From Alphaproteobacteria bacterium (GTDB lineage: Bacteria > Pseudomonadota > Alphaproteobacteria > MPNO01 > UBA830), in contig OZ251539.1 in the NCBI GenBank assembly GCA_965243135.1, positions 4,064,001 to 4,128,000 on the forward strand: 64,000 nucleotides of DNA. Reading direction: 5' to 3'. Shown piece by piece: positions 18,001-24,000 of the stretch; the stretch's first letter is position 1, and each line of letters opens with the position of its first letter. Made by a program: the position numbers.

Positions 18001-21000
18001 TCCACCATCAGAAGCGACGTCGCCTGCTTCGTGCGGACCTACGCGTCCTTGCCGTCTTCCAGGAAGGACAGCTACGAAGAGACTCTGGAGTCGCCGCTGG
18101 CCGAGCTCGGGCTCGTTCGGCCGATCGGAAAACGGGACGGATTTCGGTTCGTGCGCGGACGGAAACCGTCTCTTGGAAGCGGAGTCTTTTGCTTCGCACT
18201 CACCGAATCCTGGCCCTCGGAGTCGCAGACCCTTGCCTTCGAAACGCTGGCTCACGAGCCCGGCTTCCCCGGGCGGGTGTTCCAACTTGACGAGAACGAC
18301 CTGGCTGACCGGCTTTCCGATATCGAGGAAACGAGCGGCGGCCGCTACGCTTGGTCGGAAACGGCCGGCCTGAAGCAGGTGCTTCGCAAGCGTCCGGTGA
18401 GCGAAGCGGAAGCGCTTCTCTTCCTCGAAGCGGACTATACGTAATGCCACTCGCGGATCGGGTTCAGGTTTCACGGCGCTTCCAGCGGGCGGTTCGGATC
18501 GATACCGATTTCGGGGACGCTCTCGAAGGATACGTCTGTCCCCGATCGTCAACCAACGTTCTTGAAAACATGGCGCACCAGGTTTCCGAAAGCGGACAAG
18601 GCGCCTTCACCTGGACCGGGCCTTACGGCAGCGGCAAATCGAGTCTCGCGGTCGCCTTCGGCGCCGTCCTCGGCGGCAAAATCCAGCCGGAGCCGATATT
18701 CGGCCGGGAAACGTCCGCGATCCTGAAGCATGCCTTTCCCCCCAGACCGGTTCTTCCGGTCGTAGGCCGGAGGGAGCGCCCGGCAACGGTGATCGGCGAG
18801 GCGCTCTCGAATCTGACGACCGGCCGGAAGCGGCGAAGCTGGACGGAAAAGCAGGCGCTCGACGCGATCGGAGACATTTCGACGCGCGGCCCCGGCCTTC
18901 TCGTGCTCATCGACGAAATGGGCAAATTCCTGGAAGCGGCGGCGCGCGACGGATCGGACATCCATATTTTTCAACAGTTGGCCGAAATCGCGTCGAGAAG
19001 CGGCGGACGTTTGATCCTCGTCGGCATTCTGCATCAGGCGTTCGAGGAATACGCGCATCGGCTGTCGAGAGAAATGCGAAGCGAATGGTCGAAAATCCAG
19101 GGCCGTTTCATGGACCTCGCCGTCAATGCCGGCGGCGAAGAGCAGATCGACCTGCTCGGGCGCGCGATCGAAAGCGACCGCACGGCGGAACCTGCCGGCG
19201 CGCTGGCCGAAGGCGTCGCTCGCCTCTCCCGAAACTCCACGTCTCCGCATCTGGCCAAGACGCTGGAAGACTGCTGGCCGTTGCACCCAATCGTCGCATG
19301 CCTGCTCGGCCCCATATCGCGGCGGCGTTTCGGCCAGAACCAGCGCAGCGTATTCGGCTTTCTGAATTCCGCGGAACCCGAGGGATTTCAGGACTTCATT
19401 CTCAACGCGGGCGACGACGACCTCTACGGTCCCGATCGTCTGTGGGACTACCTCCGGATCAATCTCGAATCCGCCATACTCGCCTCGCCGGACGGACATC
19501 GCTGGGCGTTGGGGGTGGACGCCCTGGGCCGCTGCGAGGCGTTGGGGGGAGAAGCGCTGCATCTTCGTTTGCTCAAAACGGTCGCGATCGCGGATCTGGT
19601 CAAGGATCGCTCCAGACTGCCCCCGAGCGAGGAACTGTTGAAATACGCCGCATACGATTGCGAACGGCGGAAAATCGACGGCGCCTTGGAGCAGTTGCAA
19701 CAATGGTCTCTGATCGTCTTCCGGAAGTTCGCGGACGCTTATTCGCTCTTCGAGGGCAGCGACTTCGATATAGAGCGCGCAGTGGAGCAGGCGTCCGAGA
19801 GCGAGGTCGACTTCGAAGCGCTCAATTCGATGGCCCGCCTTCAACCGATCGTGGCCAAGCGGCACTATCACGAGACAGGCGCGCTTCGTTGGTTCGACGT
19901 ACGCATCGTCTCTTTGGCGCGATCCGAGGAGGAAGCCGTTGGCTATCAGCCGCGCAACGGCGCCATCGGAGCCTTCTTTCTCGCGATCCCGACGCAAGGC
20001 GAAGCCGAAGACGAGGCAAATGCGATTTGCCGCCGGATCGCCAAACGCAGCCGGGATATGGCGATCGTCGTCGGACTGTCGCGGCACAGCTGGAGCGTCC
20101 CCGCCTCGGCGATCGAATTATTGGCGCTTGAACGGGTGCGCGACGAGTCCGTCGAACTTCAAGGCGACCGCGTAGGTCGGATCGAGGTTCAAGCGCGCAT
20201 AGCAGGGCTGCAGGCACAGCTCGAAACCGAGCTGGAACGCGCCTTCGACCGCGCCTCCTGGTTCCACGGAGACGCCGGAGCAAGAACGCTCAGGCAGGCG
20301 GATCTCAACAGCTTCGCGTCCGATCTCGCCGAAGATATGTTTCCCTGCGCACCGCATCTTCCTAACGAGCTTCTCAACCGGACGAAGCCATCGAGCAGCG
20401 CAAGCGCCGCTCGCAACTCTCTACTGAAGAGAATGGTTCAAAAGGAAGGAGAGGAACGTCTGGGCATCGACGGTTATCCTGCCGAGCTCGGGCTTTTTGC
20501 ATCCCTGCTGGAGGCGACGAAACTGTATCGTCCGGCTGGGGATGCATGGCAATTTACCCCCCCCCCCCCCCCCAGAAAATGACGATTCTCATAACCTAAG
20601 CCTCGCGTGGCACGCGGTTGAATCCTATTTGAAATTAGAAACTCGCCGCGCAGTATCCCTAAGCGAGATATATTCAGTTTGGCGGCGTCCGCCTTTCGGA
20701 ATCAAAGACGGGCTGTTGCCCGTCCTGGCGGTGGCGTTCATTCTGTCTCGGCGAAAAATATTGGCGCTCTATCGCGAAGGGATATTCCAACCCCGCCTAT
20801 CGGAGCTCGACGTAGACTATATCCTCGGGGATCCGGCCGACATTCAATTGCGCTGGATGACGCTGTCCGAAACGTCGCGTCGTCTTCTGTCCGACATGGC
20901 CGAGGTCGTGCGCGAACTCGACAGCGAAAATGCGCTCAACGATCTTGAGCCTATCGACGTCGCCAGAGGTCTGGTGACGATCTACGATCGGCTGCCGCCT

Positions 21001-24000
21001 TGGGTCGGACGTACCCAGCGCCTTTCGCCCAACGCGAAACACATCAGAACGTTGCTGAAGAAGGCGAACGATCCCAACCGGCTTATCTTCGACGACATTC
21101 CAAGCGTATTGAGCGACGGCAAGAACGGTTCCGTCGAACGCGTCGCCAGCCGGGTCGGAGAAGGCCTGACGGAACTGCAAAAAGCATTTCCGGCGATGCT
21201 GTCCAGGATGAGAGAAATTTTGCTGGCGGAATTGGAGGTTCCGTACGCTTCGCCGCCGATGCTGGCGGAACTTCGGGCGCGTGCGGAGAACGCGCTCGAC
21301 CTTGCGGGGGATCATCGATTGCGGGCCTTTATCGTCCGTCTTTCGCGTTTCGAGGGGAAAGACGAAGATATGGAGAGTCTCGCGAGCATGGCCATCAACA
21401 AGCCGCCGCGCGACTGGGTCGACCCCGATATCGACCGCGCCCTCATCGCGCTGGCCGAAATGGCCCAACGTTTCGTGCGCCTGGAAGCGTTCGCCCATGT
21501 CAATGGGCGCAAGGACAAGAGGCACGCGATGGCCATGGTCGTCGGTCTGGACGGGCGCCCGGCGACGCTGCATGCCGAATTCGACGTCACCGATCTCGAC
21601 CGGCCCGGCGTCGAGTCGCTGCTCGATCGCATGGCATCGACATTAAAGGACAGCGGCGAGGAACGGCGCAACGTGATCCTGGCGGCGCTGTCCGAATTAA
21701 GCGCTCAATACCTGCAAACTTCCGGAAACGCCCATCGGCCGATGGAGCGGACCCTCACATGACGGAATGGCATGTCCTGGGGCTGTCGGGCGGGCGCGAC
21801 AGCGCCGCTCTCGCCGTCCATATGCGCGAGACGCATCCGGAGATCGACATCGAGTACTTTTTCACGGACACCGGAAAGGAGTTGCCGGAGGTCTACGAGT
21901 TCCTGGTGAAGCTGGAAGGCTTTCTGGGCAAACCGATCGTCCGCCTCAATCCCGACCGCGACTTCGATTTCTGGCTGAAGCGCTACAAGAACTTCCTGCC
22001 GTCGCCCCAATCCCGATGGTGCACGCGGCAACTGAAGCTTCGGCCTTTCGAGAACTGGATCAGATCGGCTCTGGATAACGGGACGAAGGTTTTCAGTTAC
22101 GTCGCCATTCGGGCGGACGAAGAATACAGGGAAGGTTACGCCGCGACGCACGCGGGGCTAAGCGTCCGGCTCCCCCTGAAAGAGGCAGGCGTCGATAAGT
22201 CCGGGGTATTGGAAATACTGGAAGGGGCCGGTCTGGGCTTGCCGGAGTACTACCGCTGGCGCACTCGCAGCGGGTGCACGTTCTGCTTCTTTCAACAAAA
22301 AATCGAGTGGGTTCGACTAATGGAACAGCACCCCGAGTATTTCGAAGAAGCCAAGCGCTACGAGAAAACCGCCGTCGAAAACGGTTCTCCCTTCACCTGG
22401 AGTCAGGGGGAATCGCTCAATGACTTGTCTCAACCCCAGCGGATCGCGCAAATCAAAGAAAATCACCAACGCCGGGTCGAAAGAATGCGCGACCGAATTC
22501 AGCTGAATCCGCTTCGGCCGGATAGAGAGCCAGTAGATATGGATGAAATCTACGGCAAGGCGAAGGCTTGCTTGGCGTGCCACAAATGATGTCCGCTAGT
22601 TCAACACAACCCGGGCTTTCGCCGGAACGGATTTTCGAAGCCCTCGACGATGATCAGGCAACGCGCATTCTGCCCGGTGGCGCGTTCAAACTGATCCGTG
22701 AACTCGCCCCGGACCGGATCTCGGGGCAGAGGCGCGCCGAAACGTTGGGGAACATGTTGTCTCTCGAATCGGCCGTGGACGATCCAGATCGAAGGAGCGT
22801 TCTTTTGGATGCCGTACCCAACTTCAAGATAGCCGAGCTCGAAGAGAGAACCGAAACAGATATCGTGACGCTGCGGCGAAAACTGGATTTGGAGAAGTCG
22901 GTTCGACGGGCGCTTCTGGGTTTCTTCGGCGCTCCCACGTTCGACGAAGTGCCTGCCGACTCCCGCGGCGATGCGATGGCGGTGGAACCGGCGCGGGGCT
23001 TGTTCCCCCACCAGAAGCGCGTCGCGAGCGCCGTGGAGAAACATCTGCATTCCGGAGAAGGACGCGCCATGCTGCACCTTCCCACGGGTGTCGGTAAAAC
23101 GCGGGTCGCCATGAGCATCGTCGCCTCGCACCTTCGGACTCGCCCGGGGCTGGTACTGTGGCTGGCTGCCACTCGGGAACTTCTGGAGCAGGCAGCGGAA
23201 GAGTTTCGGGCAATGTGGCAGGTCGTTGGAGACCGCCCGATCGATTGCCTTTGCTTCTGGTCGCACCACGATCCGCCCATCGAAGAAGCAGAGTCCGGTA
23301 TCGTCATCGCTGGCTTGGCTAAGCTCCACTCTTACGGAAGAGAGAGGAAGCGGCTGTGGAATCTCGGCAATCGAACCTCGATGATGGTGTTCGACGAAGC
23401 TCACCAAGCTGTCGCCGAGACCTATCAGGACCTGGTCGAAACGATCGTCACCCGAAATCCTAGAACGCCGCTTCTCGGACTCAGCGCAACGCCGGGTCGC
23501 ACATGGGACAACCCCGCGATCGACGCGGCTGTCGCAACATTGTTCCAGGAAAACAAGGTTACGATGGATTTCTTGGGGAAAAACCCGATCCGGCACCTCA
23601 CGGATGAAGGCTACCTCGCCGAAATCGATTTCTCGCTATTGAACGTCAAGCCAGGATTGCGACTTTCGCCCGACGATCTTGCGGAGGTATCAGCCTCGCT
23701 GGATATCCCGGCCGGCGTCGCCGTCAGGCTAGGCGAGGACGAGCAGCGAAATCTCCGCATTGTTCAGAGATTGCTGCAACTGTCGGATGCGCATCGGCGC
23801 ATTCTGGTTTTCGCCGCCTCGGTTGCCAACGCGACGCTTCTAGCAGGTATATGCAAAGGCATTGGGCTTGAAGCCGACGCCGTCACCGGCAAGACAGCCC
23901 CGGCATTGCGCGAGCATGTGATTCAGCGGTTCAAGCGGTCGAGCGGTCCTCACAGGGTGTTGATAAATTACGGCGTGCTGACGACAGGGTTCGACGCCCC

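Follow-up and report, generated by a model that had tools for sequence, protein, structure and literature searches.

In the window (the whole 64,000-nucleotide stretch of DNA that was analysed), the phosphorothioation gene sspC of an uncultured, sponge-associated bacterium is divided between two reading frames at a run of 17 cytosines. The locus raises the question of whether the gene is dying, has been misread, is translated across the frame change or has been caught in one state of a switch. Random switching of defence genes on and off is thought to spread risk, protection from phages being set against self-damage and DNA uptake. To our knowledge, such switching has been studied almost exclusively in pathogens with small genomes.

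The sspC locus and its cytosine run

The run was read directly from the plus strand (contig positions 4084557-4084573) and lies within sspC, a gene of an SspA-D phosphorothioation operon. ORFs were called using our own frame and GC heuristic instead of a gene finder. The upstream ORF (18351..20582) matches positions 1-728 of the 1045 positions of the PADLOC SspC profile PDLC02780 (E 5e-268) and a second ORF (20497..21762), in a frame shifted by +1 base, matches positions 728-1044. The whole SspC ATPase profile is covered, but across two frames, and the split that the initial annotation had placed at this C17 is thereby confirmed. From the frames of the two ORFs, C16 or C19 are the run lengths that join them.

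The neighbours expected of an SspABCD module are present, as sspB (DUF4007), sspD and a cysteine desulfurase gene all adjoin sspC (Table 1); the desulfurase scores below the equivalog cut-offs of both NCBIfam models that it matches. The TAA stop of sspB and the ATG of sspC share one base, the sspC stop and the sspD ATG overlap as ATGA, and the start codons of the helicase and PLD-like genes overlap the stops of sspD and the GHKL ATPase gene, respectively. PADLOC gave no match to the known restriction partners SspE, SspF, SspG or SspH among the operon neighbours, and a homologue of the SF2 helicase lies immediately 3' of sspD in 6 of 70 orthologous loci. The GHKL ATPase is MzaB-like in both PADLOC and NCBIfam, with a score far under the cut-off.

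Table 1. Features of the ssp locus, in window coordinates
Feature	Position	Strand	Basis
sspA-like cysteine desulfurase (IscS/DndA-like)	16249..17574	-	divergent from sspB; NCBIfam IscS E 7e-112, DndA E 1e-102
sspB (DUF4007)	17521..18444	+	PADLOC SspB E 1.5e-101; Pfam DUF4007 E 8e-88
sspC N-part	18444..20582	+	ATG 18444 to premature TGA 20580-20582 past the run; PADLOC SspC 1-728
C17 run, proposed slippage switch	20557..20573	+	read directly
sspC C-part, +1 frame	20574..21762	+	TGA 21760-21762; PADLOC SspC 728-1044, E 4e-101
sspD (PAPS-reductase-like)	21759..22589	+	PADLOC SspD E 5e-133
SF2 helicase (ResIII + Helicase_C), candidate restriction partner	22586..24199	+	Pfam ResIII, DEAD, Helicase_C; weak PADLOC PbeA
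GHKL ATPase (HATPase_c_3)	24150..26075	+	Pfam HATPase_c_3 E 4e-22
PLD-like nuclease candidate	26072..27028	+	PADLOC ZacB E 9e-12, DrmC E 2e-6; Pfam PLDc_2 E 1e-4, sub-cut-off

The run site in relatives and other samples

All 81 sspC orthologues that were tested at the junction pass through it in a single frame, and the site of the run is a stretch of variable length among them. In an unrelated Bryobacterales MAG, from another phylum, the corresponding site is occupied by a C22 that keeps the frame, and a Binatia MAG has an in-frame C15 at another place in sspC. Runs of at least 12 nt are numerous across both genomes (42 and 15), and three MAGs with a run-free sspC hold 0, 0 and 2 such runs. 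A search for a solved structure related to SspC found none; in the AlphaFold model of the Bryobacterales protein, residues 725-737 form a coil, and its poly-proline stretch was placed from the sequence at approximately residues 726-732. As the run would encode prolines in a variable surface coil, any in-frame length is probably tolerated. The sspC loci of the relatives G002, G045 and G053 (64-71% nucleotide identity) hold no run of 7 nt or more, and 80 metagenome loci with sspC relatives yielded no long run, a single G8 lying outside the gene. The exact 27-nt flank of the run had no match in the metagenome contigs searched. Short-read assemblies may break at long runs.

Run length differs between samples. 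An independent second assembly of the likely source sequencing run (X1) gave C17 alone, at a depth of 30 and with no variant. In a second sample (X3), a summed depth of 107 includes contigs in which the run is shorter by one C (depth 17) or by two (depth 17.5), and a contig of a third strain (X4, approximately 98% identical) has 10 more C in the run; these are lengths in assembled contigs, and the minor C16 and C15 paths could be products of library or sequencing stutter at a run of 17 nt. Contigs of a further dataset (X7) are short and of low depth, and none of those listed spans the run. In X1 and X3, the two samples of the source study, the out-of-frame C17 predominates.

Sequencing or assembly may have mis-called the exact lengths of runs that are themselves real, in which case sspC and the other genes would be intact and constitutive. 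Every platform is at its weakest in long homopolymers, the on/off calls hang on single bases, and the assembly, a single long contig, points to long reads. We regard this as quite improbable, since the independent X1 assembly returned the same C17, three lengths were resolved in X3 and multiple run lengths of one IS, described below, were recovered within one assembly. Errors of length would also not explain why runs interrupt 7 of the 12 run-bearing defence genes described below, some by -1 and others by +1.

Coding constraint acts on the out-of-frame C-part of sspC. Between X4 and the present genome, 24 of the 30 listed differences in this part fall on codon position 3; read in its own +1 frame, 22 of 27 changed codons are synonymous, whereas the two remaining frames give 2 of 28 and 3 of 30.

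Runs across the genome and in defence genes

The 6.1-Mb genome contains 55 G/C runs of 10-21 nt against approximately 0.44 expected, given that the counts of G/C runs fall 0.155-fold per extra base. The run-length spectrum is bimodal and the excess is far beyond chance. Six copies of an IS share a common run site with lengths of 17, 15, 12, 14, 15 and 18 nt, and pairs that are 99.6-99.7% identical differ there by 2-3 nt. The classes of genes that bear runs, including autotransporters, glycosyltransferases and R-M genes, are the same as in known phasomes. Loss of mismatch repair was considered as a cause and rejected, as MutS1 is intact and over the cut-off here and in both run-rich and run-free relatives; with MutS intact, slippage rates may be modest.

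Pfam Mrr_cat_2 was found at six places in the genome, and every one of the six genes holds a run (17, 21, 11, 17, 15 or 17 nt), in agreement with the initial annotation; under random placement the probability of this is 6e-9. An Mrr-family nuclease and an SF2 helicase are N-terminal in all six. The ISP coupler domain (PF22240) and the specificity domain Type_ISP_C (PF18135) were found in three genes (2857558.., 2085467.. and 738288..) but not in the other three, which are hence called ISP-like only. An N6-adenine methyltransferase domain is clear in three of the six and only weakly matched in the rest (Eco57I, UPF0020/MmeI_Mtase, MTase_II).

As assembled here, just one of the six Mrr_cat_2 genes consists of a single ORF. 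Gene 2857558-2862459 stays in frame through its run, and its paralogue (738288..), the run of which is interrupted (G11CGGG), changes frame exactly at the run, with protein identities of 93% before and 83% after it. Three further genes continue in another frame at the run, giving four in total; both the contrast between the two paralogues and the existence of other frame-shifted copies had been proposed earlier, and both held. The sixth gene is in frame through its run, but a second frameshift lies elsewhere, where there is no repeat, and the gene is therefore probably dead, which settles an earlier suspicion that it is a pseudogene. The downstream frame of h0079 (81573-86127), previously described as having no family match, is the methyltransferase half, with a weak Eco57I match, and is colinear with an intact orthologue. 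As the run of h0079 lies 3' of motif I (DPACGTGTLL), the downstream ORF is without this motif, and in the 2857558/738288 pair the run falls inside the methyltransferase domain match; on these grounds we reject an off state in which methylation would be retained (R-M+). A Type ISP gene of a congener changes frame at a G9. The run-rich congener G002 has two full-length Mrr-helicase genes without a run, and a 1.4-kb insertion interrupts one G002 copy.

Runs also occur, as had been noted, in two Type III mod genes (C18 and G21), a IIG/DrmMI-like gene and an HmaB methylase gene, to which a second IIG-like gene can be added. A frame change coincides exactly with the run in the IIG/DrmMI-like gene, whose profile match is divided into positions 2-340 and 368-1104, and likewise in one of the Type III mod genes, where it is divided into 73-759 and 762-983. 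By domain, runs were found in 4 of 10 N6_Mtase matches, 2 of 22 N6_N4_Mtase matches and 9 of 18 Eco57I matches, the last nine representing five genes. Since most methyltransferase genes have no run, the initial view that switching affects much of the defence arsenal was too strong in its extent; switching as such is still the likeliest reading.

Seven of the 12 run-bearing defence genes are out of frame. This proportion could be taken as decay, with the runs as mutational hot spots, sspC and most Mrr genes as dying pseudogenes, and the off states functionless and not regularly reversed. The predominance of the off form C17 in X1 and X3 would fit such decay, as would the non-repeat frameshift in one Mrr gene, the interrupted run at 738288 and the insertion in the G002 copy. 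However, seven of 12 is close to the two thirds that random phase would give, the downstream frames of split genes remain uninterrupted over 0.8-2.2 kb and match their profiles strongly, contigs with the in-frame C16 are present in X3, and changes in the sspC C-part are almost solely synonymous in its own frame. Decay is thus an unlikely explanation of the locus.

Full-length SspC could also be made from C17 by recoding, through RNA-polymerase slippage or +1 ribosomal slippage (tRNA-Pro on CCC), which would leave DNA length a minor matter. Seventeen identical bases permit isoenergetic re-pairing, and poly-proline stalls ribosomes. However, the out-of-frame genes beside sspC need shifts in both directions (-1 nt in four, +1 nt in three), which argues against one dedicated recoding signal; we regard this explanation as very improbable.

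The proposed switch and its relation to known systems

Slipped-strand phase variation at the G/C runs is the best reading of these sequence data, with a probability that we put at roughly 0.7. The sspC C17 would be one of about fifty hypermutable G/C runs, or contingency loci, in this bacterium. It is a long repeat within an ORF, beyond chance, in which a change of length shifts the frame, and repeat length varies within or between populations or copies (X3, X4 and 12-18 nt in the IS; contig-level lengths, for which stutter is possible). Strand slippage during replication would gain or lose a C; C16 or C19 would give full-length SspC and turn SspABCD phosphorothioation on, and with C17 translation would end at 20582, leaving a truncated product of 79 kDa, and phosphorothioation would be off, presumably in a reversible manner. 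The early stop may also have a polar effect on the tightly overlapped sspD, helicase, GHKL and PLD genes. The same device would operate in the six Type ISP-like genes and in several further methyltransferase genes, where a run after motif I or in the specificity domain implies that an out-of-frame length would remove restriction and modification together. A population would then be a mixture of cells in which different defences are active in many combinations, and it may benefit from this variety.

A more speculative extension, which we offer tentatively, is a phosphorothioate 'phasevarion'. A single slippage event in sspC might toggle both the sulphur tagging of the whole genome and, through polarity on the overlapped sspD, helicase, GHKL and PLD genes, an entirely new type of defence linked to phosphorothioation. 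About a dozen R-M enzymes would switch independently alongside it, among them the first Type ISP enzymes to be switched by a repeat, and a symbiont population could then contain thousands of combinations. The G/C-run habit may have arisen separately in at least three uncultured lineages with mismatch repair intact.

If phase variation is the true reading, defence switching extends to an uncultured, GC-rich sponge symbiont, and to Type ISP enzymes and DNA phosphorothioation; our literature searches found no report of repeat-driven switching for the Type ISP layout or for Ssp genes. The sspC run would be a concrete, testable case of phosphorothioation phase variation. Annotators of long-read MAGs should be aware that a defence gene found in pieces may represent a switch state and not a pseudogene.

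The locus shares the sspB, sspC, sspD and cysteine desulfurase gene set with the SspABCD-SspE and SspABCD-SspFGH systems and differs from them in the helicase, GHKL and PLD-like trio that follows sspD in place of SspE, SspF, SspG or SspH. For dnd genes, passages of a 2018 review (PMC6435447) state that no simple repeats had been observed in genes or promoters, and liken partial, heterogeneous phosphorothioation to phase variation; here, a run lies inside sspC itself.

Run-driven switching is already known for Type I, III, IIG and BREX/Pgl genes. In the Type III mod phasevarions of Haemophilus, Neisseria and Helicobacter, slippage of repeats within the ORF switches methylation, as described in parts of PMC12707154 and PMC6435447. 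The two Type III mod genes with runs are alike in this respect, but those phasevarions belong to small-genome pathogens, whereas the present host is an uncultured, sponge-associated bacterium of 65% GC with long mononucleotide G/C runs. The phase-variable Type IIG enzyme cj0031 of Campylobacter jejuni is likewise a single-polypeptide R-M enzyme with a poly-G run, in which both activities go off together (PMC4889913); the present six genes have the Type ISP layout, in which an Mrr nuclease and an SF2 helicase motor are additional. The Helicobacter pylori Type ISP genes HP0667-0669 and JHP0612-0613 are split by frameshifts, correction of which restores m6A in one case, and the portion of PMC3936762 that deals with them states that the frameshifts are not caused by repeats, whereas in four of the six genes here the frame changes exactly at the run. 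A further parallel is Streptomyces coelicolor Pgl (BREX type 2), from a high-GC host in which a G tract in the methyltransferase gene pglX turns defence on and off at 1e-2 to 1e-4, as given in passages of PMC4365076; that case concerns one system in one genome, whereas here at least 12 defence genes bear runs, among them a phosphorothioation gene.

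Organisation of the ssp locus

The phosphorothioation gene sspC is divided at a run of 17 C residues into an upstream ORF (N-part) and a downstream ORF (C-part), the frame of the latter lying one base further on than that of the former. Judging from the sequence, the two halves would be joined by the loss of one C or the gain of two. Start and stop codons overlap by 1-4 bases at the sspB/sspC, sspC/sspD, sspD/helicase and GHKL/PLD junctions, and PADLOC models for SspE, SspF, SspG and SspH found no match among the ssp neighbours. A homologue of the SF2 helicase is located immediately 3' of sspD in 6 of the 70 orthologous loci in which the next gene is visible and near it in two more; together with the GHKL ATPase and the PLD-like protein, the helicase of this locus may represent an undescribed phosphorothioate-linked restriction module.

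Features of the window and run-bearing loci elsewhere on the contig (run, G or C tract; L numbers, individual loci)
Feature	Coordinates	Strand	Description
Suv3-like DEXQ helicase	window 13441-15864	-	807 aa; upstream of ssp operon, adjoins desulfurase
IscS/DndA-like cysteine desulfurase	window 16249-17574		divergent to sspB
sspB (DUF4007)	window 17521-18444
sspC N-part	window 18351-20582 (true ATG 18444)	+	PADLOC SspC PDLC02780 positions 1-728 of 1045, E 5e-268
C17 run	window 20557-20573		inside sspC; read directly
sspC C-part	window 20497-21762	+	PADLOC SspC PDLC02780 positions 728-1044, E 4e-101
sspD	window 21759-22589
SF2 helicase, GHKL ATPase, PLD-like protein	window 22586-27028		in this order downstream of sspD
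Eco57I/TaqI_C-type methyltransferase (IIG-like)	window 36593-38626		no long run; defence gene outside the switch set
Mrr gene	contig 2857558-2862459		1634 aa; reads through G17
Mrr gene	contig 738288		paralogue of preceding; frame change exactly at run
Mrr gene	contig 2085467-2089816		frame change at C21 inside specificity domain
Mrr gene	contig 86127		other frame taken up at G17
Mrr gene	contig 791420		other frame taken up at G15
Mrr gene, sixth			reads through G17; separate frameshift at non-repeat site
Split gene (L053)	contig 5459503-5462563		699-aa and 349-aa ORFs meeting at G15
Second methylase match	contig 5463676		about 1 kb from L053 split gene
NHLP-like genes (L029, L038, L047)	contig 2208758, 3781408, 5147512		nitrile-hydratase-leader-like; runs
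C39-peptidase ABC exporter (L039)	contig 3795726		run just upstream
Family-2 glycosyltransferases (L015, L050)	contig 374927, 5413682		94% identical; 10-nt run each
RmlD-like gene (L033)	contig 2884653-2886115		split at C13
IS copies (L016-L018, L049, L052, L059)	contig 419006, 448899, 477004, 5407825, 5425744, 5759341		weak ISKra4-family transposase match; runs of 17, 15, 12, 14, 15, 18

The sspC run in samples and orthologues

Several observations speak for a working switch at the sspC run. The stretch is contained in public sequencing runs from sponge metagenomes and in others labelled with coded host organisms. Comparison at the sspC run covered four sequencing runs and was made throughout on assembled contigs, in which stutter is a possible source of length variants. 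Sample X1, probably the source sample, yielded a single identical contig with C17. A second sample from its study, X3, yielded contigs shortened by one C (depth 17) and by two (depth 17.5), out of a summed depth of 107. The out-of-frame (off) condition is the prevailing sspC state in X1 and X3 alike. In X4, a strain from another study that is about 2% divergent, the C run of the contig extends 10 letters beyond 17. Among the differences listed between X4 and the present genome in the sspC C-part, 24 of 30 fall at the third codon position when read in the downstream frame. In that frame 22 of 27 changed codons are synonymous; for the other two frames the figures are 2 of 28 and 3 of 30. The out-of-frame C-part has therefore been under coding constraint.

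One frame is kept across the sspC junction in all 81 orthologues tested (80 genome loci and one from the congener G002), and the run site corresponds to a stretch of variable length flanked by conserved W[RQ]F..P and DPxxLxPxW motifs. A long run was found in none of 80 further metagenome loci of sspC relatives. One Bryobacterales MAG carries an in-frame C22 at this site; residues 725-737 of its SspC form a coil in the AlphaFold model (mean pLDDT 74), with a hairpin on one side and a helix on the other, the poly-Pro being placed from the sequence at about residues 726-732. A Binatia MAG has C15, in frame, elsewhere in sspC. Genome-wide, these two MAGs hold 42 and 15 runs of at least 12, and three MAGs whose sspC has no run hold 0, 0 and 2.

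Long G/C runs across the genome and its relatives

The genome is a single contig of 6,103,318 bases (65% GC), of which the window is positions 4064001-4128000. G/C run counts drop about 6.4-fold per extra base up to length 8, above which there is a second mode, comprising 55 runs of 10-21 nt where extrapolation predicts 0.44; no A/T run is longer than 10. For every one of these 55 runs we took the surrounding 10 kb and scanned the run-touching ORFs against Pfam (78 ORFs), PADLOC (52 and 10 more) and NCBIfam (15). ORFs were chosen by a rule of our own (lowest GC at codon position 2 and highest at position 3) instead of a gene finder, and a few small shadow ORFs were left out.

Twelve of the runs lie inside restriction-modification or defence genes, namely the six Mrr_cat_2 genes, sspC, two Type III mod genes, an IIG/DrmMI-like gene, a second IIG-like gene and an HmaB (DUF1156) methylase. 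The split gene L053 would be a thirteenth, its 699-aa ORF showing weak likeness to the MAD2 defence methyltransferase (E 1e-6). Methyltransferase genes are mostly without a run.

Outside defence, runs occur, mostly at the 5' end, in six autotransporter genes and one LapA/Calx-beta adhesin gene, and at about 23 sites without assigned function. From the NHLP and exporter sites, peptide natural-product precursors may be switched too; from the glycosyltransferase and RmlD-like genes, surface sugars may also be variable. The IS copies share one run site close to the transposase ORF's 5' end, and pairs with 99.6-99.7% identity across about 760 nt differ there by 2 or 3 bases. Run lengths in other paralogue pairs are 15/14, 14/13, 12/16 and 16/12, and equal in two pairs.

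Runs of at least 12 number 45 in this genome and 91, 27, 0 and 1 in four congeners, the last of which is a fragmented draft. Four genomes from a second family have 23-77, some of the draft figures among them resembling artefacts of contig ends; most other relatives have none. Run-rich and run-free genomes both possess an intact MutS1. Across the genomes compared (G061 at L127, G062 at L090, G002, G004, G026, G049, G043 and G059), long runs are patchy: some relatives have many, as do the unrelated MAGs of Bryobacterales and Binatia, and close kin have none. This looks like a habit that evolved repeatedly.

Type ISP-like genes and known switching systems

Mrr_cat_2 was found by Pfam search at exactly six places in the genome. 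Three of these genes are complete in Type ISP domains (Mrr_cat_2, ResIII/Helicase_C, ISP_coupler, N6_Mtase and Type_ISP_C); the remaining three hold nuclease and helicase, with weaker methyltransferase matches. The run of the gene at 738288 is interrupted (G11CGGG) and overall 5 bases shorter than that of its paralogue. In the C21 gene, the Type_ISP_C match covers positions 2-157 before the run and 165-342 after it. Congener G002 has an intact 1481-aa orthologue (66% identity) without a run, colinear with both halves of the genes at 86127 and 791420, and with an 11-residue loop at the G17 position, directly after methyltransferase motif I. An out-of-frame run here would therefore remove the methyltransferase and specificity parts, and hence target-dependent restriction. 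The sixth gene, from its additional frameshift, is probably dead. In congener G004, a Type ISP gene (L162, G004:C1:1651500-1658500), 43% identical to the intact gene of this genome, changes frame exactly at G9 and has C13 at its 5' end.

In searches of open-access text, which also covered sponges, symbionts and contingency loci, we found no report of repeat-driven switching of Type ISP or phosphorothioation genes. The authors of the H. pylori study state that repeats are not the cause of its Type ISP frameshifts (PMC3936762), and a 2018 review reports that simple repeats were not observed in dnd genes or promoters (PMC6435447). Repeat-driven switching is described for Type I and III genes (PMC12707154, PMC6435447), for a Type IIG enzyme (PMC4889913) and for pglX (PMC4365076).
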